NCBI GenBank assembly: GCA_965178125.1
Contig: OZ237766.1
Location: forward strand, 1-64,000
Length of the DNA stretch: 64,000 bases
Direction: 5' to 3'
DNA from: Bilabrum cf. latius
Taxonomy: Eukaryota
Positions 7,189-54,938 of this stretch are shown in pieces (the first letter of the stretch is position 1; each line of letters starts with the position of its first letter). The position numbers were made by a program, and so were the translations under genes. Below the pieces are notes generated by a model. The model was not told the DNA's origin, did no database searches, and saw only the letters and a list, made by a program, of their open reading frames with translations.

Positions 7189-7249
7189 ACAAAAAAATGA
7201 AGATGAAAATATTTTTTCCCCGACCCTGTCCCTGACTTTATATTAGATA

Positions 7250-9432: not shown

Positions 9433-9434
9433 CC

Positions 9435-9765
9435 TTCAGGCGGTGGGAAGCGGGCGCCGTGGATGGCCGCATTCAGGCGGTGGGAAGCGGGCGCCGTGGA
9501 TGGCCGCATTCAGGCGGTGGGAAGCGGGCGCCGTGGATGGCCGCATGCAGGCGGTGGGAAGAGGGCGCCGTGGATGGCCGCATGCAGGCGGTGGGAAGAG
9601 GGCGCCGTGGATGGCCGCATTCAGGCGGTGGGAAGAGGGCGCCGTGGATGGCCGCATTCAGGCGGTGGGAAGAGGGCGCCGTGGATGGCCGCATGCAGGC
9701 GGTGGGAAGAGGGCGCCGTGGATGGCCGCATTCAGGCGGTGGGAAGAGGGCGCCGTGGATGGCCG
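9435..9765. repeat. 37-bp G-rich subtelomeric minisatellite (~9 units)
   Basis: Unit TTCAGGCGGTGGGAAG(C/A)GGGCGCCGTGGATGGCCGCA; some units begin TGCAGG (36 bp). Confidence 0.95.
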
Positions 9766-9858
9766 GATCTGGGTAGCTGGTGGAACGAAAGGCAGGCCCT
9801 GAAGGTCAGCACCCGAACAGTAAACGTTAGTCGTACTTTCAAACAGATGATAACATGA

Positions 9859-10640: not shown

Positions 10641-10953
10641 GGTAATATATTATGCTGCAAGGTCTATCTATGATCGCCTGTGGTGAACTTGTCGCCACTG
10701 GCAGGCAGAAACTCTGGGCCCATGGCATCGTGCACTGCAGTTTCAGCATCATTTTGGTCGGCAGGCATGCATGCAGCACGCATCGGACCTGCGGGATACG
10801 AAGAGCTGTGCAAGCGGGTCCCTTGGGTCCAGTCAGCAAGTCAAGTGCTGTCCGTTTGAAATCCAACGGCATCGATGGGTTCGTGATCATTGGTGGACTG
10901 CTTTGAGCTGATGCTTGTGCCTGTACTAACACAGTTGAAGAAATGGCGTTGAT

Positions 10954-24081: not shown

Positions 24082-24976
24082 ATGGTAAGATAGAATGTAT
24101 GGAGACGCTGCTATTACAGGTCCTTAGTATCATGCGCATTAGATATGCGGATACTTCTGGCCTTGGCATTGTTCCATTTGCCTGAGCATGCCCGGTACCC
24201 GAATCGGCAGCTGCCCTTGCCTGGCAGGCTGGCATCTACAGCTTGCTACAGCTCACTATGTTGCACCGACGATCTACTGTTGCTTCTTGGTGTCTCTGGC
24301 TTTTGCAGGCAGCGGCCGCCGGATCGGACAAGCCTTGGAAGGCGGACCAGCAGAAGAACCCTATGCGGTCCATCCGGTGAGAGCCTGCTTGGCAACTAGA
24401 AATAGTCTATGGCGCCATGAAGGTGGCACGGAAGTATTTTTGATATACACAAGTACGCATTGACACCACTGCTTCTGTTTATTTCGCAGCATCGACAAGC
24501 TGGTGCTGAACATCTCCACCGGTGAGGCCGGCGACAGGCTGACCTACGCCAGCCGTGTGCTCAAGCAGCTGGCCAAGGGCCAGGATCCGATCGAGTCCAA
24601 GGCTAGGTACACTGTGCGCCAGTTCGGTATCCGCCGTAACGAGAAGATCGCCACTCACGTGACTGTGCGCGGTGACCTTGCTAGGGACCTCCTGGAGCGC
24701 GGCCTCCGCGTGAAGGAGTACGAGCTGAAGTACGACAACTTCAGCGAGACTGGTTGCTTCGGTTTCGGTATCAAGGAGCACATCGACCTTGGTGTGAAGT
24801 ATGATCCCTCCACTGGCATCTTCGGCATGGATTTCTACATCGTGCTGAAGCGCCCTGGGGACCGCGTGTCCAAGCGCAGGGCCTGCCGCGGCAAGGTTGG
24901 AAACAGGCAGCGCGTCACCAAGGAGGACGCTCAGGAGTGGTTCAAGGAGACTTTCAAGGGCATGCTGTCGCACTGA
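24082..24976 (+). CDS. RPL11: 60S ribosomal protein L11 (uL5); introns 24085-24308 and 24377-24489
   Basis: [53 protein letters not shown] introns, ATG-only first exon; stop TGA. Confidence 0.97.
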
Positions 24977-28100: not shown

Positions 28101-31100
28101 GTTGGATCTGCGAAAAACGGTAGCAGGACCGCGCGATGTTTTGCTCTGGCACGGCATGCTGGGGGTCCAGGATAACGAGGGGGTCCAGCTCGATATGTGC
28201 GGGCAGCTTCAACCGCCCATTGCCTGACAGCAGCGGGGCGATCTGCACACGATGGGCCTCGGGCAAGTATGTTGCCCCTGCGTCCCAGGCCTGCGCAGAT
28301 GCGTCTCTGCGCAATTGCGGGGCTTCTGGAAGCCCGCTTTCTGCAGCACCCGCAGAGTGCTCTGAACCAGCCTTGGAAGCGCCTGTAGACCGCTTCTGCC
28401 CGAGGATAGTCTTGGACGCCTGCGAGGTCGGCGGGTCCCCATTCCGGGGTAGGATGATGCCCCGTGCTGGCCACAGTACCGTGATGTGGGGCTTGACCTG
28501 TCGCGCCACAAACCGCAGCAGTCGCACGAACAGGATGGCCATCGAGCTGCGGACCACCCGGTACGCACCATGGGCTGTTGCGGCAGGGGCCTTCTCCTTC
28601 TCCTCTGCGTCCTCGATGGGCCCAAGCAGCGGGACCCGTTCCATGGACGGGTGCCGCAGCTCTGGAGGCTACGACTGAAGGAAGGTGGACACGAGCAAGA
28701 GGAGGCCATACGAGGACAGACCGCCTGCATATGCGTCGTTGAGGCCGGATTTAGCCAGCAGCATCTTCATGGCCATCACGAGCGGGGCAAGGGCGCGCTC
28801 GTGCTGACCCATCATCATGGCCTGCTGCGTGGTGGCAAGCCCACGATGCGCGCTCGATGCCAGCGTCACATCGATCGAGACGATCCGGTGCCTTGCAGAG
28901 GCGGACGCAGAACCGCTCATCGGACTTGCCGCTGTGACCTGCGCAGGTACCCCGCTATCGCTGGTTGCAACTGTTTCACCAGTGGGCGGAGACGCATCCG
29001 CAGGAGATGCAAGCGCCGCCTGCTGGCGCCCAGCTGCCCCTGGGGACGAGGGCGCTCCCAGATCCACCTCCAGCTTGATGACTGGCACCTGGGCCGATGC
29101 AATCTCCTTGAGGTCTCGCACCCACCGCTGCTGCCGGAGGGCCTTGGCTACAAGGCTGAAGTGCCGCCGCTGAGGCAGCTCGATTGCGACGTCCACATCG
29201 CTCGCGGGGGTTGCGAGCTGGGTGATGTGCGAGCCGAAAATGTGCGTCACAGCATCTAGGCTCACAGTGCGCACCACGCTGAATACCATGCTGGCGGCCT
29301 ATCGCTCTGCCTGCCTCCTCTCCCCCTACCGGTGCCGCAGCGCCATGGTTAGCAACCTTATGTACGCGTCCAGCTGCATCTCCTTCGCCCGTCCTATCCC
29401 GCTGCTTATCTCCTGCAATGACAACTCAGCCGGGCCAATGAATCGCACTGCTGGCTGCAAGACGCCTTGGGCGGGAAGTTGCGCGAGATCCGCCTCTTGA
29501 TGACGATCAGCAGCACCCCCGGAGCCCTCTGTGTCTGCCTCCGACCTATCATGCGGATGCGCACTCGACTGTGACTTGGTCGTAGGCAGCGGCAGGATAG
29601 GCAGCCCACCCTGTGCTGACATCTCCACGCCGATGGGGAGGCGGTGACTCATGGCTTCGTCTGTTCCTACACCGATGCTAACGCTGTGTGTGACTGGCAG
29701 GGGCATGGCTTCGCCTGACCGCGGCACCGGTAGCGAGCCGTCACTAGGAAGTGGGGCAGCGGTGGGAAGCCCCTAGGATGACGCAGACAGGGCGGCTGCC
29801 GGCAGCTGTGGGCCCTGGAGCGCGCTTACAGATGCATCGACAGGGCCGGCTGAGGCACCACCCTCTTGCCCATCCCGTGCCTCTGCCGACTGCACCTGCC
29901 CTCCGCCATGGCCCCTCCACCCCTGCAGCATGCTGGCGCCACGCGTGCCACTCCACGCAGAAGCAGGCGCCGACATCTTGCGCCGAATAGCCTCATGGCT
30001 CCCATCTAGCCCAGCCAGAGGGACATGTTGTCCGCTGGTCTTGGGCACTTGCTACTCGGAGTCACCGCTGTTGGAGTGACTCGTGGTTGCAGCGGGATGA
30101 GTGGTTTCGGCGTCATCCGCACCACCCCGGTGCTTGGGCCCTCGGTTGGATGCCCCGCCGCCGAATGCAACAAATGGATTCTGGAGATAAGGGAACTCGG
30201 TGGTTGTCGCAGTGCGCGTCTGCGCTGAAGAGGCATGCCCCGAGGACTATTCTGCCTGTGGTCGCGAGGCGCTAGTTCCAATAGCACGCACGGACTCGCT
30301 GCCATCTTCCGTCGCGCCCTAGGACCCCAGTGCTTTGCCTGCGTCTGCTGCCAGCGTCTGCTTTCCACCGCCTTTGACTTTCTACTAGCTGGCCGCAGCT
30401 CCTTTTGACGATCCATCAGACGCTCCTTTCTTTGGCGAGTGCTTGCCCTTGCCCTTGCTTTTGCCCTTGCCCTGGTCGCCTCCCTGGTGTGCCTTGCCCT
30501 TGGATTCGGAAATCATCAAGTCCATTCGCAGCTCATTAGACTGGATCATGGCCTAAGTCAGGCGCTGAGCTACTGCCGACCGGCTGTGCGGCCCGTTGTC
30601 TGCACCTTGTGCGCCACCCTGGTCCCGCAGCACGGGCGTCAGCCACACGTGCATGGCCACATCGATGCCGCGCCAGTCCAGCGCGCAGTGAGGCCACGCC
30701 TGCACTTCTTCCGCCTCATCTGCCGCTCCTGGCATTCCCGACCGAAGCTCGTGCCCCTGCACGCCTTTCGGCCCCGAGCCCGGCGTGGAGCCCACTGTCT
30801 CGCGAGCTGCTCCGGAGCTTCCCGGCGCCATCTCATCGTCACCACCCGACTCCTCCCTGGGCTGCTAGCCAGGGGAGCCAGGCGAGCCAGGCAGGTGCTG
30901 CGACGGCTCTAGCACGAAGTCATCTGGGATCCGCTACAGGCGCCCGGTATGCTCCGATGCATCTCCTGCGGCCCCCAGATCCGAGCTGGAGCTCGCCATG
31001 GGCTGCAGGGAGGCGGACCGAGGTGCGGCGCGGAGCAGACTGACACCGTGAGGGGACAGTGGCGTGCCAGAGGGCAGCAAATCCGTGCTGCTGACCGCCG

Positions 31101-34100
31101 TGGCAGCCCCGCTCCGGCCCTCACTGGCGTCTCCGTGTGACATGCTGGCAGAGGAGGCAGGCAGTCCGCGAGCCAGTCGGCCGCTGCGCCGCTTCCGATT
31201 CTTGCGCCCCCTGGTTCTGTTCTTTGGCTTGCCCTTTCCCCCGGCACCCCCTTCTGGAACGATGCCCAGAATAGCCATGCGCTCCCCAATGCCCATCTGG
31301 TCCCACAGCTAAATGAATGGCAGCTTGGACCGCAGACCCACGTTCACCTGAGACGCATACCCCGGCGGCAGCTTGTCCAGCAGCAGCCCGTAGCGCTCCT
31401 TCATCTTCTGGATGCGCCGCCTGTCCGGCTCCTCCATGGGAGCCGCGGCGCAACTCGCATCCCCAGGTCCACTGTCTGCATCTGCCCCTTGCGAGCCGCC
31501 CCCCTCGGAGGCCCCCGTGCCCTCGGACACGACGACCCCCCTCGCGGTCGGCCCACCACCTTGCCCGCCGTGCAGCGGAGGCACGCACCCGCTGTCCTGC
31601 CCCTGTTCCTCACCGCCCCCAGCCCGCCGAGACCGCATCGCAAGGCGCCTGTGCTCATCGTCTAAGATCCGACCCAGGAGCCGCACTGCATTGGCTGCAT
31701 CCCGCACAACCCCCTGCTTGCCCTGCCAGTCCTGGCCCCCGCCCAAGCTAAGCCCCGCGCCAGGGGACTGCGCCCCAGCTTCGGCCGCCTCTTCTGCCTC
31801 GGCAGCCTACAGAACGGCCTCACTCCTTCGCAAGCGCGCCCTGGATACCTGAAGGGACTCGGTCCGTTGGACGGGCAGCGAGCGGTGGCTGGCGTTGCCC
31901 CCTTTCTGGCTGACAGCCGCGCCCCGCTGCGAGGAGGTCCCGTCCACGTCCAGCAAAGACTTTGAATCAACGGCGGGAAGGCCCGCACCCCCAGCTGGTC
32001 TCCGTCCCCCGTCCTTACCCCGAGCAGGTGGCCCCCTACCACCGTCATCCGACTTGGCCCTGGTGCGCGGGGCACCCCTGGGGAGCTGGGGCTGGGCTGA
32101 CTCAAAGGTCTCAACTGAGGCACACCCCATGCCCCCTGCCGCCTTCTCGTCCTCCTCGACCGCGGGCAGCTCTGAGGCTCCCAGCGCGAACAGGTTGCGG
32201 ACGTGCCTCCTGCTCAGCTTGCCCCTGATCATGGCCTACCAGGCCCAGAAATTGTGCCAAATGGACAGCTCCAGACGGTGCGCAATCACCGCCCCAAGAG
32301 TCAGCTAAGTGGGCCTGCTGTACCACCCACAGCACCCGAGCTCCCCCGGCAGCGAAGGCGCGGTGTACTTGATACCCTTAGACTACAGGGCGTCTGCCGA
32401 CCCCCTGCGCCCGCCACCCTTCTTGCCCTTTTTCTTTTTAGCGCTGCGCGGACCCGAAGCATGGGTGGCAATGCGCAGGCCTGTGGTCGGGTCTCGGGGT
32501 GGCTGCTCCGTGAGGAAGCACCTGTCCGTGACGGCCATGAGCAGCTCCAGGAGACGAGGTGGGTGCCGCAGCAGCTCGTGAGTCAGGCACAGTGTGTCAC
32601 CCTGCAGATTGCTGTCGCACAGACGGGCCCCTTCCACTAGGGACCGACTTGCTTTCACTCCCGGGCTCAGCTGCTCCCCAACCATCTCCTGCACGTGTCC
32701 ATGCGCGGCCTCTCTTGTCATGGCTTTTTCATCCTGCCCCGAACCCCCGGCAGAGGATGCCTGTGCATCGCTGCTGGAGGATCGCCGGATACCCTTGGGC
32801 CCCCCCTCGCCGAGCCTTCCTCCTGCTCGGTGAGAGGGTGGTAGGGGCGGGCCCAGCACCACATCGGCGGTTGTGCGCGGGGATGGCACAGGGGCTGCTT
32901 CGTCACAGCTAGCTCCCAGTCCTGAAGAGTCGACAGCTCCATTGCCTGTATCAGAGACGGTTGCAAGATCATCCGTGGTGCCCCCTACCCCATCTTCGGG
33001 CCCAGCCTCACTACTTGCCTCCCCCTTCTCCCCCATGGCACCGGCGACCCTCCTGCTCAGCGAGGCATGCACCTGCTGCAGGGCACCGTGCGCCCGCGCC
33101 AAGCTGCCTTCGTCTAGCTCCCCGCTGGCCACAGCCCCCGCCTTGTTCCCTGCCCTCCCCAGCATGGACGCAACGGACGCAGTGAGCCCCCCTATCCCGT
33201 CGATGACTCCGCCCAGCGACTGGATCGACACGAACTGCAGCCGGGAGGCAGCCTGCGCCCCAGTGCCAGGGTCAGACCCACGGCGCTAACGACGAGAGGA
33301 GCGCAGGCCGGCACTGCCTGGCCGGGGGCGGCGGCTCGTTGCAGGCCCCAGCAAGCTGTGCGGTGCCTTGATGCCGCCGGCCCTGCCCCCCTCGTCGTGG
33401 CTCTCGCCCACGGGGGTGAAGATGCCCTCCTTGCCCGCGCTCTACCGGGCCAGCGCCTGCAGGAAGTCGCACCAGGGCTTGTCCACCACGGTCAGCACAG
33501 CCTCTCTCTCGGGTGGGTCCAGCACGCTGGTGAACCACTACCACACCGCGTCTCGCAGTCGGGAGCCAGAGGACCGCACTCCGCCGCTGGCCCGCTGGCC
33601 TTCCTCGCGTGCAGTCGGAAGGGAATCGCGGGCCGACTGAGATGACGATGGCTGCATTGGCCTGGCGTGCAAGTGCGGCTGATTCTGGTCCTATTGCTGC
33701 TAGGAAGAGGACGAGGAAGACGACAGCGGGGCACTTGCGGTGGCTGCATCGGGGGCCGACTGGCTCCTACGTACCCCGCTCGAGTCCCGGGAGGCCTTAT
33801 CTAGCTTGGTTGTGTCTGCTGCACCACTGCTACCGCTCTCCCCGCACCCCTGCTCCTGTTCGAGGCCGTGGTCCTCTGCCTCATCCTGGCCCTAGCGACT
33901 GACCACCTGAGGCTACAGCTGCCCGGCCCCGGCCTCAGATCGACCTTTCTTCTCGGCCTAACTTGCAGTTTGCCTCTCACTGCCTCCCCTCTCCCGGTCC
34001 ATGGCCTCCAGCTGCTCCAAAGACAGCCCTCCTGCATGCTGGGAACCTGTGCGTTGGGGCGGCTGGCGCACTGCGTGCACCGGTGCACCCGACAAAAGCC

Positions 34101-34449
34101 GCCGGGAGCTAGACACGGCCGAGTGTGGTACAGCGCCAAGCAATGCAGCAGCCTATGAGTACGGCTCTTTCGGCAGCTGTGGGGGCACCACTGTGGCCCG
34201 TGGGCGGGCTGCAGCTTTAGAATCAGTCTAGCTGCTGCCAGCAGACCCGGGACCTGCCACTTCTGTCGCTCCATGCGTTCCAATTGTGGACGTTGATGGT
34301 CGTGAATTCGAACCCAACGAGCTCGAGCTCAAGTTCCCTGTAGCGGCTCGGCCTGACGGACCAATGCCTCTTCTGCGGCGTCGAGGCGCCGGTGTGGCTC
34401 GTGCTGGCGAGGGTCTGCTCTACTGCTCAGAACCACGTGATGATGACAT
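25111..34449 (-). CDS. Very large non-canonical poly(A) polymerase / terminal nucleotidyltransferase (Trf4/PAPD5 family, MEE44-like), ~3100 aa
   Basis: FGSHITQLATPASDVDV catalytic motif, LNDAYAGGLSSY, PAP-associated LVILDP..NIARSCYRFSQIQ; frame open from 34842 to 25111 with ~44 TAGs and no TAA/TGA. Start codon uncertain. Confidence 0.85.
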
Positions 34450-35017
34450 TAAATCAGTTACTGTAGCTTTATCTGTGTGCTAAGTATTGCGAATCCTTAA
34501 GCTGAAGAGGGGTAAACAACGTACAGCTTGCGAACTGCCAATTCCAAAGGAAACACTGTTCGTGGCGTGGTCCTGCGAACACAACGGGGCAACAGTCAGC
34601 ACCATACGGCTCATTGGCGCAACAGTGACAGCAAAAATTGCACGCACCAGGAGATTCGAAAGATGGCCTGGACTGGAGATGAGCCATTCCCACAGAGTGC
34701 GACCGTGTACCTAATGCATCGCAGAGGAGGCATCGTCTGACCGAGGCACAGCGCACGAAGACAGACAAACAACTATAACTACAAGTAGCAACTCACACAG
34801 GGTTGAAGGAGTGGGTATGTGGCGAAGCCACCGACGCAAGAGTTAGTGCGAATGGGTAGTGTGGCGCCGCGCAATGGTGCAGTGTGTGGTTCCGCTAATG
34901 CCAAGCTGGAGGCTTGGAGCAAGCGCCGGGAAATGGTCACGCACAGGTGATCCTAGTACGTTGATTCACATTCTATCCATACCGACAAGACCAGGCCACC
35001 CGTACATGTGAGCGTTA

Positions 35018-35803
35018 TCAAGAGCCCGGCCTCGCTCCCAGCATCTCCAGCACTCGAGCATCCACCGCACCCTTCTTCCCCGCCTCCGCCAGCCTCCTAT
35101 CCATCATTGCCTGCGCGAGCCCCTTGAGCAGCTATTCACACCCCTCCCCTGTTACCGCGCTGGTGGCGAGGAAACGGACCCCCTTTGCGCCACCACTCGC
35201 CTTGGTTGGAGCTCCTCCGCCTTGCTCCTCCTCGATCTTGCCGGCAAGCTCGTCTGCTTCCTACCAGGCACCCTCGACGCTGACGTGCCCTTCATCTGCC
35301 CCTGATGAGGCAGCCCTCACAACAGATCGCTCTCTGTGGGCTGGAACTAGATCTGCCTTGCAGCCAACGAGCTGGACAAGAGCTGCTCCACAATTCTCGG
35401 ACACCATCGAAGTCCAGTACGGGTTGGCACTGGGAGTAGAATCGCTATCAGCCAGGTCCATGCAGACTAATATAGCATCTTTGCCTCGAAATTGTTGCCT
35501 TGTAGACGACATGTATCTCTCATCACCGGCAAAGTCCCAGATCTCGACTTGAGCTCGGGTCGGCTGCCCATCTGCGTTCCTGATATCAACTTCGAGCGAT
35601 CCAAAGTCTACTGCCAAGGTTGCGCGTGGAACCACATCCCCAAGCTTAGAACCTAGCAAACACTTCACGAGTGACGTCTTCCCGACCCCATGCGGCCCTA
35701 TCACTGCTACTCTAAACTTGATGGCTCCGCTAGCACCCTCATCGCCGAGCACTGTGATTGGCTCTTTCGGATCTGACGGCTCGGACGAAAACAAACAGCC
35801 CAT
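35018..35803 (-). CDS. Rab-like small GTPase with N-terminal MGC acylation motif (~261 aa)
   Basis: GPHGVGKTS, WDFAGDE, GCKAD; the G5 motif (ATSAVTG) lies beyond TAG 35261; second TAG at 35132; ends TGA-TAA. Confidence 0.88.
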
Positions 35804-36047
35804 GCTTCAACTAGCTTTGTTTATGCCTCTGCACTGGCCTATTTGCGGTAGTGAGTGAGCCAAGAAGGCAGATCCGGAGTCCGGAATCCGGATTGGACAC
35901 GCAACCACCTCTGGCAACTTGCCACTGCCAACACTGCCAGGAGCAGACTGTCAACTCAGAGAGTCTTGCTCCATCATTGTGATACAGCTCTCAATTTGTA
36001 AACTGACACGAGGTTCAACTGCACCGTGCACACCCGAGAAACCGCAA

Positions 36048-36986
36048 TCAACCCCGGGGCGCAGCGGCCGCACCACTGGCAGCCTCGCTGCTGCTTCCTC
36101 CGCCCCGCTCGCCTCCCCCCTCCCCTTCTCTGGGCAGCAGCGCATCCACGCTGTGCTCCGTGCCCATGGCCCGGTTCACCAGCGCCTGCACCACGGCCCG
36201 CACCACGCTCTCCACCCCCTGCCCCGAGAGAGCGCTCGTTGCCACGTATCGCACCCTCCACGGGGACCAGGCGCGACTGGGCCCGTCTGTCAGCAGCACG
36301 TCCTCCCGGAGGGGCTAGCCGCGGGGAGGGGCCGGCGCGCCGCGAACACCTTCTTCCAAGCGGCGCCCCTGCAGAGTCAGCTCCAGTTCTCGAGCGGTTT
36401 CGTGCGCCGTCTTGGCCGACACGATGTGGCCCGACTGCGCCCGTCGCATCGCTGCCGCGTCACCCACCGGCCGCTCCCCCGAAGCTCCAGCGGATCCGCC
36501 CGCAGCTTGGCCAGCCCTTCCATCCGCAGATGCAACGAGGTCTGCCTTGCATCCCACCAAGATGACCAGCGCGTCGGGGGCCTGGTCTGCCAGGTCCTCG
36601 ACCCAATCCGACAGAAGAGACTACCTCGACGATTCATCTGTCAGATCAAAGCAGAAAATAGCAGCGTCAGCCCCTCTAAAGTAAGATGTAGTGATGGAGC
36701 GATACAATTCTTGGCCACTTGTGTCCCAAAGGTGGCATTTCGCCGGAAATGGTCCGCGCGGGCCCAAAGCTTCAAGGCTGATTACAGAGAAACCTGCCCC
36801 AATTGTGGGCTCCGTCTAGGCATCAAACGAGCTCGTTGCAATACGTTGTACCAGTGTAGTCTTTCCTACCGCACTGTTTCCGAGGAGAAGCACCTTGAAT
36901 GGCCTCACAGCGCTGGCTTCGCCAGCCAGATTCAGATCCGGTGGCTCCGTGGATATACCACCATCTTTAGAGTTGGAGCATCCCAT
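36048..36986 (-). CDS. Second Rab-like small GTPase with N-terminal MGC motif (~312 aa)
   Basis: GNSAVGKTT, PTIGAGF, WDTSGQE, YFRGA, GCKAD, ATSALSG in one frame across TAGs at 36816, 36621 and 36315; stop TGA. Confidence 0.88.
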
Positions 36987-37417
36987 CACAAGCAAATGAC
37001 AGGTTGTTTTCGCTGTCTCTGTTCCGATAGACTCGGATTGGTGTGCCCGTGCCGATCAACAGTGACAAAGACTGTCCGAAATCGATCCGCCCAAGAGACC
37101 GGAAGAACCAGGAACCGGGAACGCCGTCTCGTCGGTGGTTCGCCCGCTGTTTCTCAGCAAGGCTGATCTTGGGCTGCCCATGGCCGCGGTCTAGCACGGC
37201 AGACTGCCGGGCTAGCCGGCCTTGCCTCCCAAGGAAGCAGCCATTCTCGCATTGCTGCGCCGCGATGCCCGCCACTGGCAGCAGCGCAAAGCAGGTCACG
37301 GTGTTGCGCTAGGAGGCTCACCGGCCCGGGCGTTCCAATAAGGTTTTGGCCCATCCGCACCCCCTACCACCATCCAATTGCGGCCCACATCGCACCCCAC
37401 TGGCAGCGTATTGATCG

Positions 37418-37855
37418 TCAGCTCTCCTCGCCGCCCGAGGTGCCATCCCTCTTTTCGCCGCTGCCAATTGCATCTGCATCGACACCGTGCGGTGCAGCCT
37501 GAGGATCCAGAGTGCTTGTCCGGACCCAGTCCAGGTACTCGTGGAGCCCTCCCCTCACGTCAGTGAAGATAACCTCTGGCACGTCATAAGGGTGCACCTC
37601 TCGCACGTGGGCAATCAGCCTGTCCGCCAGGCTACTCCTCGTCTTTGCGATCAGCAAGCTCTCCGAGTCCTCCTCCACGGCACCCTTCCAGTGATACACG
37701 CTGGTGATGCCGGGTACAATGTTCACGCAAGCTGCTAGCTTCGCTTCAACGATGCTTCGGGCCACTTCCTTCGCTTTGCTAGGCGGAGCCGTGATGAGCG
37801 CGACTTTGATGCCATCCTCAGCTGCATCCTTGCTGGATGCATGCATTGACGCCAT
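37418..37855 (-). CDS. cutA: CutA1 divalent cation tolerance protein
   Basis: KLAACVNIVPGITSVYHWKG..HPYDVPEVI..YLDWV; the start may lie further upstream. Confidence 0.93.
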   Translation of the reverse strand: MASMHASSKDAAEDGIKVALITAPPSKAKEVARSIVEAKLAACVNIVPGITSVYHWKGAVEEDSESLLIAKTRSSLADRLIAHVREVHPYDVPEVIFTDVRGGLHEYLDWVRTSTLDPQAAPHGVDADAIGSGEKRDGTSGGEES

Positions 37856-38309
37856 TCTTGCCCCCGTCTGCACAGAAGCAAGCGGGGCAGTCCGGGGTTG
37901 CACTTGGAGCGGAGACAGATCGCTTGTGTTTTTCGCCACCGAGACCGCTACAACCTGCGCATATTGCATTCGGCACGCATTAATCACAACTGGTCGCTAG
38001 TATAGACTGAAAAATCGCCCAGCAGAGCACCGAAGGCGAAGTAAAGGCCTCGCAAGCGACCGCATCGACAACGTGCCCTGCTGCTGCAGAAGACCCTTCT
38101 AGACGGAGAGTGTTGCAACGCAGGCCTTACCGATACAGTCAATGCTTTGAGGAGAAACTTAAGTATCGGCAGATTGCAACGTGTATGGTGAAAGCCAGTG
38201 GCCTGCCAGTGTGGGTGAGCTTAGGGATTGATCGCACTGCAGCGCGGTCACAACGCCAACGCCAGGCAGCATCTCTGCACAGTCCCGCAAAGTCAAACCC
38301 ATTAGCATG

Positions 38310-39515
38310 TTACACTCGCAGCAGCTGCACCTTCTTCCCGAACGCAATCACAACCCAGTCAGGCAGGTTGGAGGGCCACAAGAGGCTGTTGATCTCTGCC
38401 TCCGCCCCGTAGGCCAAGATGGGGTCCTCCACAGGGGTGGGCAGCTGGCTCAAGTCCCAGATGAGGGCCTGAGTGTCGTCTGCTCCCGAGCACAGGTGGC
38501 ATGCACTGTGCGGGGCCCACGCCACCGAGTTTACTGGGTGCGAGTGCGCCGCTAGCTCCGCCACAGGCATGGACGGCACTCGAATGTCCACGATCGTGAC
38601 CTTGCTCTGGTCCTGCGCGGCGCACGCGATATAGTTGGTGTCTATCTTGTTCCAAGCCAGCCTCAGCATGGGTGCCTGGTTGGGAGTCTCGTACATGATG
38701 GTCGAGTGGTCCAGCTTGCGCAGGTCGAACAGACGCAGGGAGCCATCCGCACCCACTGTGCCGAAGATGTTCTTGCTCCTGGAGAAGGCGATGTCATACA
38801 CTTCCTTGTCATGCGCGATGATCTGCGTACGGATGCGCTGCTGGTCCACGTCCCAGATGGTGCACGTGGTGTCGATGGACGAGGTGCCGATCAGGTTGGG
38901 GTCCTCCTCGTTCCAGTCGAAGCTCGTCAGCGGGGCGCAGTACTCGCTATTCTTGTTCGAGTTGAATAGACCTTCCTGCGCCACCGAAGACGTGGCCGTG
39001 GAGGAGCCCCCCGCGGGCGGCTCCCCGTCCCTGTAGCTCCACAGTCTCAGGTAGTCCCCTGTGGTGGCAAGGATGTCGCGCTTGGCTGCCAGCGCCTTGG
39101 GCGCCCACATGATCTTCGTCGCGGGGTACGGGTGGTCGAACTGGGCCTTTTCCTTAAACTCGGCCGTATCCTCGTCTATCTCCACTATCTTGATGCGGTT
39201 GCAGTATTCCTCGATGAAGCTGCCAAGGGCAAGCCGGAATGCGACGCCGGGGGCTGGCGCGTTGCTCGATGACATGCCATACACTGTCCAAGGGGCCTCA
39301 TATGTATGTATTTCTTTCTTGTCAATACCTTTTTCAGATGCTGCGCCTGCTGTTTCTGTCCCTTCCTTCGCAGCAGAGCTGGACGACGACGAGGTTGCTT
39401 CCCCCCCTGCTGGTGCATCACCCGCACGACCTCTTGATGCAGCCGCAACTGATTCACCTTCCATTGGTACTGAGCTCGGCACCGCTGGTGGTCCACTACT
39501 TCCTGTGCTTGCCAT
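38310..39515 (-). CDS. DCAF7: WD40 protein of the DCAF7/WDR68/AN11 family
   Basis: FDHPYPATKIMW, CAPLTSFDWN, TSSIDTTCTIWD, IAHDKEVYDIAF; canonical C-terminus QLLRV followed by TAA. Confidence 0.96.
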   Translation of the reverse strand: MASTGSSGPPAVPSSVPMEGESVAAASRGRAGDAPAGGEATSSSSSSAAKEGTETAGAASEKGIDKKEIHTYEAPWTVYGMSSSNAPAPGVAFRLALGSFIEEYCNRIKIVEIDEDTAEFKEKAQFDHPYPATKIMWAPKALAAKRDILATTGDYLRLWSYRDGEPPAGGSSTATSSVAQEGLFNSNKNSEYCAPLTSFDWNEEDPNLIGTSSIDTTCTIWDVDQQRIRTQIIAHDKEVYDIAFSRSKNIFGTVGADGSLRLFDLRKLDHSTIMYETPNQAPMLRLAWNKIDTNYIACAAQDQSKVTIVDIRVPSMPVAELAAHSHPVNSVAWAPHSACHLCSGADDTQALIWDLSQLPTPVEDPILAYGAEAEINSLLWPSNLPDWVVIAFGKKVQLLRV

Positions 39516-39802
39516 GTTGGGTTCAATAATGCAAACAACTTATAGCAACTGATGGCAACAGATTGGAGTCGTTTCAAGCCCTAGACTGAGTACTCGACAA
39601 GTTTAAGTTTTTTTTCTATTCGATTTCTTGTACGCCTTGTACTGATATTTCGTGCTGCCCGAAGTTTGCTTGGCCGGTAGAATTGAAACGGCGATCGAGA
39701 AATAGCACTGTACAATTGAAATCGAACGTTCCAGATAGGTTCGGTCATATGATTCGATGACGTGGGAAAGAATTGAGCCATCTGCACCAAGGAAATTGCG
39801 GA

Positions 39803-40416
39803 ATGCGCCATGCTTGGCAAGTGTTTGAACAGCCGAAACGGGCTGGTAGAATTTTGACGGGAATCCTCATTGCTGGCTGGACTTTCAAATGGATAGTGTG
39901 GGATTTGGTAAGGGAGAGGCACTGCCTGCTGCGAAGCAATCTCGCCATCGTTTGTGGCTACGATATACCTGGTTCTTACTGTGATACTTTGGGGTTGTGT
40001 TTACTGTTGTTTGTCGTTGCGTGGTTCGAACTTCGTGTTGGGCACTGCTCGCTAGCTGCAACTGCTATTGTACTGGCTCATTTGTGCCGCAGGCTAGATC
40101 CGAATTCGCGGAACTTGAGTAGCGTCGAATGGAAAAGCTAGATGAAAGTTTTGCGCAGATGCAAGCCGGTAAGCGAAAGTGCACCCCGTCCTTGTTTGTC
40201 AGTGCCGCATCCTGGATCGAGCCTGAGAATGTTGAGAGATTTCTTTCCAAACACGCAGGAAATCGAGTGAATTGGAGGCTCGTGGAGGCTCGGGCGGATA
40301 GAGAAGAGAAGGTAGCCGCGGAGCTGTTGGGCCAGGGAATCCAGCTGATGCCCCTGGATGCAAGGGAAGCTGTGGACTAGGCTGCCGATCAGGATACACA
40401 CAGCGGCAGGAGCTGA
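39803..40416 (+). CDS. Small hypothetical single-pass membrane protein; intron 39908-40092
   Basis: A GTAAGG..CCGCAG intron joins a hydrophobic exon in frame with the ORF at 40129; two TAGs; stop TGA; no family recognised. Confidence 0.5.
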
Positions 40417-41240
40417 GCCATATACTGCCCATAGCTCTGCATGAACCACTCACTGGGTGGAGGGGGGGGGGGGGTTGTCATTCATTTTTGGAGCGACTGC
40501 CAGTGTAAGGCTGCGTGTGAGGCTCGGAGGCTCGGGTTGAGCACCGTTGTAGCTTAGAGTCCAGGCACCACTGGCGCGGCGCACGTGCTATGGTCTGCAA
40601 CTGCTTGGACCCCGCGTTGGGATGCATGGGTCGCCCTTACCCCCTCTTCGGGCGAGCATATGCGTGTCTTCAGGGCCATACAGGTGTCTCCGTGGCTGCG
40701 TGTTTGTGCCCATACAACGCGCCTGATCGGAGCAAGTGGCGGTACTGCACGCTGTTCGAGCGTTTCTAGCGGCTGCTACCAGCCTAGGATGCTGTAAATG
40801 ACGCGCGTGCATCGTCATGATTGATTGTGGATCGGAGCGGCCGCACTGGTTGTCGTCACAGTGATCCACCCTTTCGTGCGTCTCGCATTCTAGTCGTCTG
40901 ACTTGTACTTCACAGAGTGGCGGTGGGACGGCTGGTCCGATGCTCTCGGCTCGGATCATAGTTACGTGCACTTACAGTCGCTAGAGTGCCATATAACTGG
41001 AAGTGATGAGCAGGCCAGACAGAACCAGTGTGCGCGCAGACGTACTCGCTGGCAAGTCTTGGAATGAGAATCCTGATAAAGCGCATTAATCGTTGTGTAA
41101 ACAAGCTTCAAACGCTTAAAGCATTGCATTGGGGCAGTCGAGACGATAGTCGTACTACTGGCAGTGTTGCGTTCCGTCGCACGGGTCTTTCCTCACGAAC
41201 GCCGGCTCGACGTCATTTTCATTCTGGCGGATCTGCAAGC

Positions 41241-41859
41241 ATGGCCGCATCAGCTGATGGCTCAAGTACTTCTATCATCAAAGGCAAGCGTGTTGGGCAA
41301 GTAATTAAACTTAAACCGGAGAAGTACGATGAGTACAAGAAGCTGCACGCAAGCGTATGGCCGGACGTCTTGAAGAGGATCCACGACAGTAATATTCGTG
41401 ATTATACAATATACTACTCTCCAGGTCAGTATTTGTCATGCTCTTCTTCGTAATACCGCTTTTTCCAGTATTGCATAGAACATGCGATCTTCCAAGGCCG
41501 CCCCGACTCGATTCATCGCAGAAGTAGGATGCCTTTTCAGCCACTTCGTGTACGTCGGGGAAGATTGGGATAAGGATATGGCAGCCATTGCCGCGGACGA
41601 GAAAACTCGGGAATGGTGGGCTGTTTGCGATCCGTGGTGAGTGCAGGCAGAGTATCTCGAAGATTGAGTTTGCCATACCACCGCTGCGGTTTCCAGTCAA
41701 ACGAGTGGGACAGCACGTCACTGAAAGCTACAATAATCAACTTTGAGGTTTCGCAGCCAAGAAAGCGTCGCACCTGATGCCGCTAAAGGGTCGGCTGATT
41801 CGGACGCAACTGGCCGCCCCTGGTGGCAGGGCATGGAGGAGCTCTTCCACTCCGACTGA
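41241..41859 (+). CDS. L-rhamnose mutarotase (DUF718) family protein; introns 41425-41521 and 41637-41756
   Basis: KLKPEKYDEYKKLHASVWP..IRDYTIY / LFSHFVYVG..DMAAIAADEKTREWW / WWQGMEELFHSD then TGA. Confidence 0.9.
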
Positions 41860-42153
41860 TGAAGTGCGCGTCTGTTGATCACTGAGCCTATGCATGTTTT
41901 ACGATTTGGTGCGCCATTGTGGGTGCACGTGGTGCATGCTGTCTTGCTGGCAGGGGGCCAGTGGCAGTGGATGCAGGCCTTGCAGTTGGTGGCCCGCTGC
42001 TCAGGATTCCTAGAAGCCCACTACTTGTCAAGTATTGCACCCATCGTATGCTTACAACCACAATCGTAGTATCGAATCGGATCCACAGGCGGTCGGCCCC
42101 CGTGCCACCAGCAGAGTCGGTGTCAGGCACCCCCTCTGGAAGTACCTCGGCAC

Positions 42154-43065
42154 TCACTGGTACCTGCCTTGTCGGATCCAGACCTGTGATACCCATTTTT
42201 CCTCATCCGCCTCTTCTCCTGTGTGCAGAGCCAGCTTGTCCAGCTTGCCGTCGAGCGTGCACGGGAAAAACACCAGCGCCTTGCCCTTCTTGGGGAGTAC
42301 CCGCAAGTCCAGCTTGGGGAAGTACGTGCCGCCGCCAGATGCGGCATCTGTCAAATACACAAGCACAGTGCCGACTCTGTTCCCGCCCGTGAAGCAGCAT
42401 TCCCTTCCTGGGGCAGTGTTCAGATCGAAGGCGTCGAAGTGCGACTTGTAGAACTGGCCCTTGTAGTACCGACACACCTATGGGGGCTCTTGGTGCGTCG
42501 GCGGCTTCTTAGTAAGCTTTGCCACTTTATCACACAGCCATGATACGGATGCTTTGTTCAAGAAACAACTCTGGCTCGTGCGCGTTGGTGCAGAGCTCTT
42601 GCCCGCCGTCCCGTCCACCACGATACTTCGTTTTAGTCCAGGACCACCGACTGCTTTGAGCTCATCGCATTCATCCGATGTCAAGAAATTTTCAATAACG
42701 TAAACTGGCGGCTGGTCAGAGACTCGCTTGAGCCTGGGTGTCTCTGCGAGGGGTTTCTTGATGGACACGTAGCCACGAAGCTCAATGAGCTGCTGTGCAA
42801 GTCTCCGGTAGCGAGCAGTCTAAACCTTCTTGCTATGGCCCAACGCTAGAGAAATCGGGCTTTGATTCTGCATCAATGCATTCCATCGAGTTGTCGTGGC
42901 AAAGCAGGCACCAATCTCACTCGGGTCAAGCGGCAAATAGTTGTCTTCTCGTCTATCTTTCTCTTCAACAAAGACCGCATGGGGGGCTACCTGTATTTTA
43001 GGAGAATCTGTCGTCGCTGGAATCACATACGGATCCACAGAAGCCGAACTGGACACGGCGGCCAT
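42154..43065 (-). CDS. Prolyl 4-hydroxylase alpha-like 2OG-Fe(II) dioxygenase (~303 aa)
   Basis: IENFLTSDEC, RTS, EPP[TAG]VCRYYKGQFYKSHFD, TVLVYL..GGGTYFP, LH..KW; stop TGA. 5' structure uncertain. Confidence 0.92.
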
Positions 43066-43561
43066 GCCGAGCCGCACCGATTGCTTGGTTCTTAAAGACG
43101 CAGTTCTCCAAGCAGCACCGTTGTTCTAAGGGAGCAGACTTGAAATCCCAAGCAGGCGCGGCTTGCTAAGCAGAAACTGTCGCAGTATCCTGGTAGGAGC
43201 CAAGAGTTCGTTCAGCAAGGAAACTTTGTGTTCCGACAAACTATGAAGATGAATGCGTGGCTTGGTCTCAACCGCCTTGCACTGGCCAGGATGTACTGCA
43301 CGAGGCGGCCTGCTGCCTCAAGAGGTGGTGGCTCCACCGGATGGCACATTTACAATATCATCAATGCATTTGGATCGTGTTTGGCGCAGGGGGGGCTTGC
43401 TGGGTATATACCAGTATTTTATAACATCTCGTAACAATGGCTGCCTGTCCGTTCGGCGTTCGGAGCGAACTTCATCCATCCAACACGGTCGCACTAAACC
43501 ATCCATTTGGGCTGCCCTTTAAGCGTATTGCCATCCTTTCCGTTTATCAGGAGTAATTAAG

Positions 43562-46500
43562 ATGGGATGCGGAACTAGTACCCCCGTGGTGGATGCGTCA
43601 AATCAGAACGTCCAAGTGATGGCACACCGTTCGCAGTCGTAGTCGCACAAAGAATACGTGGCCATGCCAAATCAGGTCAGCGTTGCGAAATATTTGTTGT
43701 GAAGCCGAGATGGAGGTCAAGTTATCGCCACATTTAGTGGTGCCTTGCTTTCGCACCCAATTGGATCGCAGGCAGGAACCAACATTGAGGACCCAGACAC
43801 GGCCAAGTCCGGCGTTTTTTACCACGTGTCCGTTTCAATATGGATGGCAAAGGGTCTCATCGAGGCAGATTCTTTGGGAGGCTCTGATCCGTACGTAATC
43901 GCCGAGTGTCAGGGCGTGAAGCTGAGGACCGAAACGGTGCAGTCCAACACGTGAGCCGAGCCTGCAGGTTGGTAAATAGAATTCTGCTTGTTTGGAGGGT
44001 GTGCTCCAGGCATCCCATGGGGGCCTCTTCGTTGGCATTGTCTGCGTGCTGGCGTCACCTGATGGCCGTGTTCCGCTGCACCAGGGGATCCACTCAGCCT
44101 CACTGCCAGAGGCACCAACCGATCCACTCACGATACGATGCACAAATCCCAGATCGCCCCCCTCCTCCTCATTGCACTGCCCCGCAGCAATCCCGTGTTC
44201 AACGAGCGGTTCGACTTCATGCTCAAGTCCAAGCCCAGCTACATCACCTTCGCCCTCATGGACAGCGACCTGGCAACGAGCGACGACCCGCTGGGCCAGT
44301 GCTACATCGCCCTGGATGCATCCCATTGCAGCGAGCAGGGCCACCCCGTGCAGTGGCTGGATGTCAACAGCACCCCGGAGATGAAGCAGCAGGGCGTGGA
44401 GGCAACCGGCCAGCTACAGGTGCAGGCCAACTGCACGGAGGTCCGGGCCTCTGCCGAGGACGCCGAGACCCAGGCCCGCATGCGGCAGGTGCTCTCCCTC
44501 GGGGTGCACAGCCTCCTGCTCACCTCTGTGCAGTTCAAGCCCGAGCAGGCCGCCAAGGCCCTCCGGTGCGCCCGCGGAGGAGAGCTGCTCCTAGTGTTCA
44601 TCGTGCAATTCGGGCAACACACGGTCCGCTCCCCAGCCATCCCCGTGGACCAGGCGCTGGTTGAGATAGGGACACCCATCCCCATCCACAAGCAGGCCAG
44701 GTTCTGGGTACTGGCAGGCCAGGAGAATTACGTGGCTCGCGTGTACATCTACGCAGACACCAACCGCAAGGCAGGGGCGGACCCTGATCTGGAGCTGCTG
44801 TCCATCGCCAACGTGCCCACCAAGCGGCTGCTGGAGGGCGTGACGGCGGACCGGGCCTCCAAGAAGAAATCGATCGATGAGGGGGCAGAGGACAAACCAG
44901 CGGCAGGCAAGGGCAAGGGCAAGGGCAAGGGCGGCAAGATTGCGGAGAGTGCCACCCAGCACATGAGCGTGGGCTTCCTCGCCGCTGCACTCAGCGACGA
45001 GGACGGAGATGGGGCACTGGGAGACAACCAGCTGCGGGCGGCTCTCATCGCGCGCCCCAAGCTGCACGTCCAGGGGCCGGGGCAAGCGCTGCGCCGGGAG
45101 CAGACGCAGGCGGCCCAGCTGCGGAAGGCGCACACCTAGGAACGGAAGGCCTTGAGGAGGCAGGCGGCCACTCGCCACGTGCTGCCCGAGGGCACGGACG
45201 AGAGTGCCAAGAGTGCCCAGGGCGAGGCGGATCTGCGTGGCACCGTGGTGGCAGGGGGCAAGGGGACGTTTAGCAAGGTGCTGGGCGAGCAGGAGGTGGC
45301 GCCTGCCCTGCGAGACGAGCTGCTGGGTGTCAAGATGGTGCAGGGGGGCGTGGACGAGAAGATACAGGCAGGCGCAGGGGCCAGCGGAGCGGGAGGGGCT
45401 GCATCGGGGGCAGGGGTGGACAGGGACGTGGGCAGCGGCGGCGTGCACACGCTGATCCGGCCCTCCGCAAAGGACGCTGCGGCAGCGATGGCGATCGTGG
45501 GTGTGCGCGGCGTGTTCAGCAGCAAGGTGGATCTGGAGCGCGTGTTTTTCTCCCGTCTGCTGGAGCGGTTCGACGGAGACAAGGACGGCAGGCTGGAGAA
45601 GGAGGAGATCCTCATGGGGCTCTCTGCGCTGAGTCACGGGGACATCAACAAGGGGCTGGGCATGGACGACAAGGGCATCGAGGAGCTGTTCGACCGGCTG
45701 GACGCAGACGGCAGCGGGGCTCTCGAGGAGTCCGAGCTGCTTCGGTTCCTGCGGTCTGCCGAGTTCTAGTCGTCTCGGATGGCCGCCACGATGATGGCCT
45801 ATGTCTTGGACGGGCAGGGGGGCGTGCAGGAGATGATGACCGGCTTCAAGGACCCTGATGCCCGCAGGGTGGGGCAGCTGCAGGCGGTGCGCGGGGGCGG
45901 CAAGATCCTTGCGGGCGCCGAGGAGCTGGACACGGTGGGGGAGCTGTACGGGATGGAGCGCAGGACGGGAATGGTGGTCAAGGAACACATCCCGGGGTAC
46001 GTGCGCATGGCCCTCAACATGCTGTACAAGGCGGGTGACCTGGCCAAGCTGAGTGGGGTGCGGGCCGCGCTCTCCCAGTTCTCCGCCCACGAGGGGGCCG
46101 AGAAGAACGAGCCCTCGAGCGTAGATGGGATTGCAGACTTCATCGCGCAGTTCGGAATCGACGAGAGGGAGATGCAGTTGCCGGTGGAAGCGTTCGGGTC
46201 CTTCAACGAATTCTTCTACCGCAAGCTGAAGAAGGAGGCGAGGCCCATCGCTGCTCCAGAGGACGACTCTGTGCTGGTCTCGCCCGCGGACTGCAGGCTC
46301 AACGTGTTCAACACCATCACGGACGCCACTCGGCTCTGGATCAAGGGCAAGCAGTTCAGCGTGGACCAGCTCTTCGGCACGGGTGCAGACGAGGTCAAGC
46401 GCAAGTACGCGCCCAGGTTCCAGGGCGGCTCGCTGGTCATCGCGCGCCTGGCCCCGCAGGACTACCACCGGTGGCACTTCCCCGTGAGCGGGACGCTGTC

Positions 46501-46957
46501 GCCGCGCATGCCCGTGGATGGTTGCCTGTACACGGTGAATCCAATCGCGATCAAGAAGGAGCTTGACGTGTACACGGAGAACAAGCGGCTGCTGCACTTC
46601 GTGGACACGGAGGACTTCGGGACCGTGGGGATGGTGGCTGTGGGGGCCACTGTGGTTGGCTCGATCCACATCACGGTGGAGGACGGGTCCAAGGTGCGCA
46701 AGGGGGACGAGCACGGGTACTTTGCTTTCGGGGGGAGCACCGTGCTGCTGCTGTTCGAGCCGGGGAGGGTGCGCTTTGACGCCGACCTGCTTGAGAACTC
46801 GTATGAGCGCGGTCTGGAGACCATCGTCAAGGTGGGAGACAGGATCGGGCAGGCGGTGCCTCCGGGGGTCGCAGATGGGGGCAGGGAGGCGGAGGGAGCC
46901 GCGGCAGGAGGCGCAGCGGCGGCGGCTGCTGCTGGTGGGGAGGAGGAGGGGACCTGA
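43562..46957 (+). CDS. PSD2: Type II phosphatidylserine decarboxylase (MGC N-terminus, C2 domain, EF-hands, PSD domain); introns 43676-43771 and 43951-44187
   Basis: C2 motifs SDPYV..NPVFNE; EF-hands DGDKDGRLEKEE and DADGSGALEESE; FNEFFYRKLK, SPADCR, RLAPQDYHRWH, FGGST; TAGs at 43640, 45137 and 45767. Confidence 0.93.
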
Positions 46958-47063
46958 TTTATGCGGTGCATTGCACGCACCCTTATTTGAGATGTGCCCA
47001 TCAAGAGACGATTGCTGCCCTGCCATGGATACGGTCGCCGAACCCAGATCACTTGATCCACAC

Positions 47064-48443
47064 TCATTTCCCTCTCTTCCCCGCGCCCCCGCTCGCTGCA
47101 CCACCTGCGCCCCCACCGCCCCCGACAATGCCGGCGGCCTGCAGTGCCGCCCTGGCCGTGTTGGAGATGTGTGCGAACCGCTTCGGTCCCAGCAGCACGC
47201 CCCCGTACCAGCGGGTCACCACCACGCACGCGTCCTGCGCCCCCGCCAGCTCCAGCAACGATGACATCCTGGCGCCAGCCCCGCTCTCCCCGTCCTCGTC
47301 GTTGTCGCTCACCACCACCGGTGGATCGGCCACCTCCCCGCCCTCGGTCCTCCGTCTGAACCTGAAGGCGAGCATGTTGTGAGTGGCCTTGGCCACCCGC
47401 TTGTCCTCCAGGAGACGAGCCAGCACGGCGCGCACCTCCGCCTCACTCGTCACACGGGCCGCGAATCCCACGAACTCCGACTTCCGGTCTATCAGCGATG
47501 GACCCTTGTGGATGGTGGGGCATTCCACCACCACTTCGCCGGTGCTGGTGCCGGTGCTAGCGCTGGCTGATTCGGCCGCAGCTGTACCCTCTGTGCCTGC
47601 TGCAGGTCTAGCGCTAGGTGACCCGTCTCCGTCTGAGACAGCCAGACTCTTTGCATCCCCGCTGGCACTGGCACTGCCAGCGCCCTCGCCGGCCCACGCC
47701 TCCAAAGCAGCCTACCGCACTGCCTGTGCCGCTGCAAGCACGTGTTCCTGGGCCGACTGGCACTGCAGCTGAGAGCTCAGGCTGCTGCCAGCTGCACCAG
47801 TGCAAGTCCCAGCATCAATCGGTGCCGTTCCCTCCTCTACACCGCTGCCAGACGCACTACCAGTGATTCCCTTGCATGTGCCTTTGCCATCTCTATCAGC
47901 TTTTCCCAGCGCCCCCTGTGCAGGTGGTACCCTCACCCAACCATCCTCCAGGCCAATTGGCACGCCAGGTGTGGCCGCCCCGGGGCCTGCCGCAGACCCA
48001 GATGCAGTCCCACCAGGCTGCTGCAGCACGCCCCCGCGCACCTCCAGGGATGTTTCCCACGCTTTGGCTCGCAGTGCGGCGAGCGCCTCTTCGTTGATCC
48101 CCTTGCCAATGAGCATGAGCGAGGCACCAGCCTCAGGGTATGCCAGCGGGATATCAGCGACCATCCGCACTGTTCTGGTAGTAAGCCCACTACTGTTGTC
48201 GCATAGAGAAATAGTCAGTCTGTATGACGACAGCTCGCTGCTTGCAAATGCAGCCAGAGCGGCGTCTGGATCGCTTCCGATCGTTCGCATTGCATGCAGC
48301 AGCCTCCTGGGCTCGGGTGCCGATACTCGTTCAGCCCCTAGGCTGGATGTGCCTTCGAACCCGTCGCAAAAGCTACCCCCAAACGTTGCTTCAAGCGCTT
48401 CGATCTCATCAGATTGCCTCTTTATCTATTCCGATGTCGACAT
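47064..48443 (-). CDS. IMPACT: IMPACT/Yih1 family protein (RWD + UPF0029 domains, ~459 aa)
   Basis: QSDEIEALEATF, YP motif, DRKSEF, ATHNMLAFR, DEDGESGAG, VVVTRWYGGVLLGPKRF; TAGs at 48426 and 47712; stop TGA. Confidence 0.92.
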
Positions 48444-48674
48444 GGTCGGGTGGATACTCTAGTCCCGTGACCGACCACTGGCAGATTGCTCTTGCCGCGC
48501 TCTTCTGCGCAGCTTCCTCGCTTCCCGTCTCTACTTTCTGGCATCGCAATCCATTCGCTCAGGTATACACAGCCCTTGATCTCAGATGAGCCTCGAGCGA
48601 GGAGTTGCTCTTCGTTGAACGTTCGTTTGCGGGAGCGAACCTAATCGAGCCGGCTCGCCCGACCTCCAATCAGC

Positions 48675-51614: not shown

Positions 51615-51861
51615 AAGGGCAAGTCAAGTATTAACTTTGTATCGTTGATTCGGTCCACGTGCGACACGATGCTCCGAAGCTAGCATGGCTGCGACCGCGT
51701 GCCGATGGCTACTGCAGTTGCGACGATCATCCACTGGCAATGGCCACAGCCAACGGACCCAACTGCAACTACTGTCAGTTTCGGTTGTTGCCGAATACAG
51801 AGGCCTTAATAGCCAGTAGTTCATATTAAAATAACGTTATTCTGCACGATCCCTGGATTTA

Positions 51862-54777: not shown

Positions 54778-54938
54778 AACGGTGGTTGCGCAGCGATTCA
54801 ACGTGGTAGCGAACGAACAAACGAACGAACGAACGAACTGGTGGCGATGAACCTTCGTTTTGAGCACTGCTGAGGTTCGCTCTGCAGTTGACGCCTGCCA
54901 TCATCGTGTGACGCTCCATATATTTTCGGCTCGTGAAC

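Follow-up and report, generated by a model that had tools for sequence, protein, structure and literature searches.

A probable nuclear code with UAG as glutamine and UAA and UGA as sole stop codons in a GC-rich microbial eukaryote

We analysed the first 64,000 nucleotides of contig OZ237766.1 (GenBank assembly GCA_965178125.1, listed under Bilabrum cf. latius), a stretch we refer to as the window, and centred the analysis on the gene for DCAF7 and on the TAA codon with which this gene ends. The window is nuclear DNA of a microbial eukaryote that is rich in guanine plus cytosine (GC) and poor in introns. Judging from sequence, UAG very probably stands for glutamine in its nuclear code, with UAA and UGA remaining as the sole stop codons, in effect NCBI table 15.

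The DCAF7/WDR68 coding sequence, assigned from Pfam and from its homologues, occupies 38313-39515 on the minus strand. It comprises 401 codons, has no introns and contains no internal TAG, TAA or TGA. The frame is single and uninterrupted over 409 codons (38310..39539), with the first ATG at 39515, and a further in-frame TAA lies in the 5' leader at 39540-39542, 8 codons upstream of the start codon. The product matches the WD40 and beta-propeller entries of Pfam. It has more than 2,500 relatives with identities of up to 91%, some of which are named by their sources as WD repeat-containing protein 68 or DCAF7. At its 3' end the gene reads TTC GGG AAG AAG GTG CAG CTG CTG CGA GTG TAA on the minus strand, giving FGKKVQLLRV followed by the stop codon at 38310-38312 (minus strand). 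The sequence-only reading of this DNA had claimed that DCAF7 ends in KVQLLRV-TAA exactly at the conserved C-terminus of the family, and this was borne out, the TAA falling inside the interval that it had named (38300-38345). The C-terminal residue was identical in position in all 120 of the best relatives, drawn from more than 2,500, which ended in LRV (111), LKV (3), LHV (3) or LRL (3). We also fetched 19 metagenome loci with DCAF7 relatives and read the codon after the last V. In 17 of them this was a stop codon, while for the remaining two the tblastn match did not extend as far as that V. No relative of DCAF7 was found in the prokaryote genome contigs that were scanned.

We then compared the locus with a metagenome contig of a related organism (L001, GC 0.53), whose DCAF7 is 89-91% identical to that of the window at the protein level and approximately 79% identical at the DNA level. 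DCAF7 in L001 is closed by the same codon, TAA, at the homologous residue. Pairwise DNA identity between the window and L001 was 97/123 up to and including this TAA and 56/149 beyond it. Differences before the TAA fell mainly at third codon positions, and the blastn match between the two contigs stopped on the final base of the TAA. Taken at the level of sequence, the UAA after DCAF7 is thereby shown to be a true protein end.

UAG behaves very differently. Under the standard code the longest open reading frame (ORF) in the window has 874 codons, while with only TAA and TGA as stops the longest ORFs reach 3243, 1887, 1223 and 1126 codons. The 17 long window ORFs, which total 14,466 codons, contain 111 in-frame TAGs. 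L001 holds 40 in 2,900 codons, and an open frame of 2129 codons in this contig contains 34 TAGs without a TAA or a TGA. As a share of the glutamine-type codons, TAG accounts for 14% in the window (111/773) and for 27% in L001 (40/149). Several of the window ORFs encode eukaryotic domains, namely a Rab-like GTPase, CutA, RNase H2 subunit A, a GOST seven-transmembrane domain, a phosphatidylserine decarboxylase (PSD) with C2 and EF-hand domains, a prolyl-4-hydroxylase (P4H)-type oxygenase and a poly(A)-polymerase-like domain. In-frame TAGs are located within the Rab, P4H and PSD genes. The Rab-like GTPase ORF (36048-37055, minus strand) ends in TGA and contains TAGs at 36816-36818, 36621-36623 and 36315-36317.

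The largest frame, an ORF with a poly(A)-polymerase-like nucleotidyltransferase domain (25111-34842, minus strand), spans 3243 codons with 46 TAGs, no TAA and no TGA inside, and ends in TGA. It can be aligned with its L001 orthologue of 2129 codons, with 950 of 1953 aligned residues identical. This ORF is apparently intron-free, and nothing in it is recognisable apart from a poly(A)-polymerase/TUTase-like palm domain at residues 1847-1925. TAG is scarce in conserved parts of the window: there is none in DCAF7 or in the RPL11 exon (24491-24973), and eight domain regions have 3 among 44 glutamine-type codons. The proportion is higher in long ORFs without a Pfam family (72/467), a difference that is a trend only. 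UAG is a frequent sense codon which, as far as sequence can tell, behaves like glutamine.

In an organism with the standard code, such TAGs could in principle arise from lesions in pseudogenes, from errors in sequencing, from introns or from editing. The data offer nothing in favour of this, and we give it almost no credence. Lesions of this kind would have to account for 111 TAGs alongside no TAA and no TGA in the same frames, and the pattern is repeated in L001, an independent metagenome contig. Contigs from three public runs (X6, X7 and X8) that we mapped on 35001-55000 argue in the same direction. Eight joints in them are bounded by GT..AG or CT..AC, and a loose poly(T) end lies at 42028, a pattern that spliced, polyadenylated transcripts would give. 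The X7 contig at 36206-37165 spans the three TAGs of the Rab gene with no joint and with the letters unchanged. DCAF7 is covered by X7 (38265-39615) and by X8 (38153-39615) with no joints and no differing letters, and its TAA is covered by contigs of all three runs with identical letters. Since the contigs match the DNA without a joint or a difference at these places, splicing and editing appear to leave both the TAGs and the DCAF7 TAA intact, even though the same contigs show spliced introns elsewhere.

The mapped contigs also illuminate the neighbourhood of DCAF7. An intron with CT..AC ends on the plus strand lies at 37953-38128 (minus strand), upstream of the CutA coding region. The exon upstream of it falls within 38129-38309, just past the DCAF7 stop codon. 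One X6 contig runs from Rab through CutA to DCAF7, which reflects either overlapping untranslated regions of neighbouring genes or read-through transcription.

To identify the amino acid, we scored the partners of TAG in alignments of window and L001 orthologues at sites with no fewer than 5 identities among the 10 flanking residues. Among 24 such well-aligned TAGs, the partner was CAG or CAA in 12; in the others it was E at three sites, H, D and N at two each, and P, K and L at one each. The log-likelihood of this profile was -48.6 for glutamine and -71.9 for glutamate, the next best residue. A TAG in the PSD gene (45767-45769, plus strand) stands at a site that is glutamine in the nearest homologues. 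The column has Q in six of the seven closest of them, namely the one that is 97% identical and five of the next six. Across the 120 homologues Q is the commonest residue in this column, at 23 of 90 non-gap rows.

It is very unlikely, in our judgement, that UAG is a sense codon for another residue, such as Glu, Leu or Ser, or for a mixture, so that only the part of our reading that concerns UAA as a stop would be right. Half of the well-aligned TAG partners (12/24) are indeed not glutamine, and a histidine is aligned to the TAG site of P4H in a solved bacterial P4H. Codes with UAG as Leu, Ser or Glu are also known (PMC11687900). However, the canonical glutamine codons are themselves kept at only 62 of 95 comparable sites, and glutamine beats glutamate by 23 log-likelihood units. 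The Q shared at the PSD site by the 97%-identical homologue and five of the next six likewise favours glutamine, as do the TAGs of the large ORFs, which fall in Q-rich runs.

We also examined how TAA and TGA are distributed. The 14,466 codons of the 17 window ORFs contain no in-frame TAA, and the other two frames of these ORFs hold 42 and 46. In-frame TGA is equally absent, whereas the two other frames have 223 and 249. There is no in-frame TAA or TGA in the 2,900 codons of L001 either. Were TAA used like TAG, the CAA/CAG ratios of 0.327 in the window and 0.879 in L001 would predict about 36 and about 35, respectively. Considering that these expectations are derived from CAA/CAG and that none was seen, GC bias fails to explain the missing TAA. 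In frames that run from TGA to TGA, TAA is confined to the short extensions at either terminus, a few codons upstream of the first ATG in 8 of the 17 ORFs and at the 3' end in 3 of the 17.

We also looked at composition on the two sides of each codon. Across the six frames of the window, 49 TAAs have at least 60 open codons on each side, and none of them has coding-like usage on both. The best-scoring candidate, at 7245, adjoins a CCCTAA array. For 74 in-frame TAGs, the codon-usage score of the flanks averages 0.12 on each side. Base composition agrees with this. Both GC and GC at third codon positions (GC3) fall across the three TAA ends, GC from 0.62 to 0.54, from 0.62 to 0.58 and from 0.76 to 0.54, much as they do across ten TGA ends, where mean GC falls from 0.67 to 0.52 and GC3 from 0.72 to 0.55. 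Across 77 in-frame TAGs there is no change (GC 0.63/0.63, GC3 0.66/0.66).

The 17 ORFs end in TGA in 14 cases and in TAA in 3. No ORF end needs TAG, but TAGs are read through by construction, and the only end that is fixed by homology is that of DCAF7. The other two TAA ends are those of a 1887-codon ORF with 13 in-frame TAGs (12613-12615, minus strand) and of a 989-codon ORF with 5 in-frame TAGs (51612-51614, plus strand). Both were recognised from frame structure together with a drop in composition, in GC3 from 0.70 to 0.30 for the former and in GC from 0.76 to 0.54 for the latter. Because neither protein contains a Pfam family, these two C-termini are without confirmation by homology. For TGA, the last exon of RPL11 (24490-24976) presumably ends at a TGA, as judged against the human sequence, and TGA likewise closes a spliced gene on the plus strand that ends at 41859. 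UGA is the common stop codon of this organism and UAA the rarer one.

These results bear directly on the most familiar alternative, the UAR=Gln code (table 6), under which TAA would be rare simply through GC richness and the TAA of DCAF7 would encode a glutamine followed by a short tail. The window is indeed GC-rich (0.53-0.66 per 4 kb), and on its minus strand, which encodes the largest genes, TAA occurs 188 times versus 799 for TAG and 773 for TGA. (The plus-strand count of 482 is inflated because of the CCCTAA repeats.) Codons ending in A are nevertheless not so rare as to hide a glutamine codon, given the roughly 36 and 35 TAAs predicted and the absence of any in either the window or L001, and the ORFs themselves hold 42 and 46 TAAs off frame. 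A short tail also fits poorly with an end that matches all 120 best homologues and with conservation that ceases at the TAA. We regard a table 6 code as highly improbable here.

Alternatively, UAA might be context-dependent as in Condylostoma and Blastocrithidia, being sense internally and a stop near the 3' ends of mRNAs. Such codes do exist (PMC5304391, PMC12153298), and a sample of only about 17,400 codons leaves some room for one. Conversely, no in-frame TAA occurs in the 14,466 plus 2,900 codons, and not one of the 49 candidate TAAs is coding-like on both sides. TAA and TGA are seen at ends only and TAG inside only, although the way in which the ORFs were delimited makes this partly circular. 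A context-dependent UAA is thus very unlikely. The table 6 code and the standard code were both rejected, as each is contradicted by the data from the window and from L001.

The sequence-only reading had called TAA "demonstrably" a stop and had supported this with the lack of internal TAAs and with two further TAA ends, at 12613 and 51612. The lack of internal TAAs stood up, with none in 14,466 codons where about 36 were expected and none of 49 candidates coding-like. So did the proposed separation from table 6, on which the DCAF7 end, the collapse of DNA conservation, the TAA deficit and the composition drop agree. The ends at 12613 and 51612 are real ORF ends (of 1887 and 989 codons), with C-termini that homology does not confirm. 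Every sequence-level test agrees with TAA as a stop, but "demonstrably" was slightly strong, considering that two of the three TAA ends are established from ORF structure and composition.

Several points weigh against the proposed assignment of UAG to glutamine and of UAA and UGA to stop. The count of zero in-frame TAAs is partly built in, the ORFs being delimited by TAA and TGA. Frame lengths, the positions of TAA in TGA-bounded frames, the homology-defined end of DCAF7, the stop in conservation and the composition drop are free of this circularity. Homology confirms one of the three TAA ends, that of DCAF7. Some ORF stretches hold introns, for example 42744-42920 in the P4H ORF, and the codon totals are therefore approximate. 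None of the runs listed as containing the window is recorded as RNA. The RNA status of X6-X8 is a guessed label, and X6 was labelled "probably DNA". ARAGORN predicted no tRNA genes in the window or in L001. Finally, a sample of 17,366 codons would be compatible with a rare sense use of UAA.

The proposed mechanism for such a split would involve one tRNA and one release factor. Of the two relevant anticodons, CUA pairs with UAG alone, while UUA would serve both UAA and UAG. In this organism a glutamine tRNA carrying CUA may thus decode UAG and leave UAA undecoded, and a tRNA with anticodon UUA would be absent. The presence of tRNA-Gln(CUA) without a tRNA(UUA) would yield exactly a UAG-only code. 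In addition, eRF1, the single release factor, may have lost or weakened its recognition of UAG while retaining that of UAA and UGA. Rfam, applied at its gathering threshold, gave no matches in the window, and eRF1 was not among the 22 window ORFs in a general Pfam scan. Panek et al. discuss such a mechanism for Iotanema and the rhizarian exLh, and remark that the tRNAs and eRF1 changes behind codes of this kind often prove difficult to identify (PMC5304391).

The closest known parallel in codon meaning is Iotanema spirale (Fornicata), in which UAG is glutamine and UAA and UGA are stops, with UAA as the primary stop and UAG making up around 8% of the glutamine codons (PMC5304391). The argument made for Iotanema also resembles ours, with UAG at glutamine sites, UAA and UGA at ends and no convincing internal UAA. 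The two organisms differ in the main stop codon, which is UAA in Iotanema and UGA here (14/17 ORF ends), and in the use of UAG, which reaches only about 8% of glutamine codons there compared to 14% (window) and 27% (L001) here. Moreover, the organism described here has a high GC content, and its DCAF7 and that of Cafeteria are 62% identical; Iotanema enters this comparison through its description.

UAG as glutamine with UAA kept as a stop has also been reported for Protocruzia tuzeti and two phyllopharyngean ciliate lineages (PMC11687900), which share what is effectively table 15 with the window. In contrast to these ciliates, the window has GT..AG introns, long GC-rich genes and CCCTAA arrays, and its best named protein matches come from stramenopiles and opisthokonts, with ciliates further down. 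Other UAG-only or split codes assign UAG to Leu (the rhizarian exLh and some ciliates) or to Ser (Scotinosphaera), and the ciliate PL0344 reads UAG as Glu and UAA as Lys (PMC11687900). In these organisms UAG and UAA are uncoupled as they are here, but the amino acid differs, glutamine being the best fit in our data. Table 6 itself is used by many ciliates, ulvophyte algae, hexamitin diplomonads and Streblomastix. The algal parasite Amoeboaphelidium protococcarum is reported to read both UAA and UAG as glutamine. All of these share UAG=Gln with the window organism; their UAA is also glutamine, whereas here it is kept out of frames and closes DCAF7.

The rare UAG-only type is thus already known, and the window organism is a further case of it, not a new kind. 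The split between UAG and UAA, which the sequence-only reading had singled out as the mechanistically unusual part, is real but had been described before in other eukaryotes (PMC5304391, PMC11687900).

We next considered which lineage the window may come from. The best named match of DCAF7 is Cafeteria (62%), with Ceratiomyxa and Plasmodiophora about equal and the ciliate Muranothrix lower (59%). RNase H2A, for which only 36 proteins passed, is best matched by oomycetes (52%), and Tetrahymena is lower (40%). PSD is best matched by the ichthyosporeans Amoebidium (49%) and Ichthyophonus (47%). In a quick PSD tree of 41 rows chosen from 120 matches, the window sequence was placed among unnamed sequences, beside ichthyosporean paralogues and apart from Fungi. 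An aphelid origin of the window found neither support nor contradiction; were it true, the present code would qualify what is reported for Amoeboaphelidium. Our literature search, which included 2024-2026 and had subscription journals mostly outside its coverage, found no report of a reassigned nuclear UAG from stramenopiles, bicosoecids or ichthyosporeans. The organism may belong to an undescribed non-ciliate clade of at least two members (79% identical in DCAF7 DNA), in which UAG came to mean glutamine independently, UAA stayed a stop and UAG makes up 14% and 27% of the glutamine-type codons; we offer this as a tentative proposal. If true, the few lineages with separate meanings for UAG and UAA would gain a new major one. 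Because the code is common to at least one diverged relative, L001, it is not a recent accident.

To our knowledge, UAG and UAA nearly always change meaning jointly. From split codes it is clear that a single eukaryotic release factor can be adjusted to distinguish UAG from UAA, and the organisms that carry such codes are natural models for single-stop-codon recoding. The compact genome, the heavy use of UAG and the availability of a sequenced relative would make the tRNA and eRF1 basis of the code directly testable in this lineage. Sequence words of the window were near-complete (at least 60% of sampled words) in the public runs of four studies and less complete in those of eight more, so that the lineage seems to be cultivable or at least repeatedly sequenced. 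There is a practical consequence as well, since gene callers set to the standard code or to table 6 would break or over-extend most genes here.

The remaining observations concern the layout of the window. Between window positions 28122-39335 and L001 positions 340-11107, the orientation of DCAF7 with respect to the large ORF and the Rab-like gene is reversed. CutA of the window had no blastn match in L001. A small plus-strand gene at 41240-41859, spliced at 41425-41521 and 41637-41756, is convergent with the P4H gene. Its product, we presume, resembles an L-rhamnose mutarotase-type protein. At their 3' ends these genes share a few bases, as one contig extends to 42041 and the poly(A) site lies at 42028.

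The beginning of the window is repetitive. The telomere-type hexamer CCCTAA forms three internal arrays (3087-3584, 7249-7728 and 8592-9435), which alternate with arrays of a 155-base-pair (bp) satellite (2273-3024, 5689-7188 and 7778-8597), and a 37-bp repeat follows at 9435-9765. The first CCCTAA array is flanked by two paralogous plus-strand ORFs (144-1994 and 3602-5329), which have near-identical N-terminal parts and acidic C-terminal parts and matched no Pfam family. The whole of 2273-9765 resembles a subtelomeric stretch or chromosome ends that have fused.

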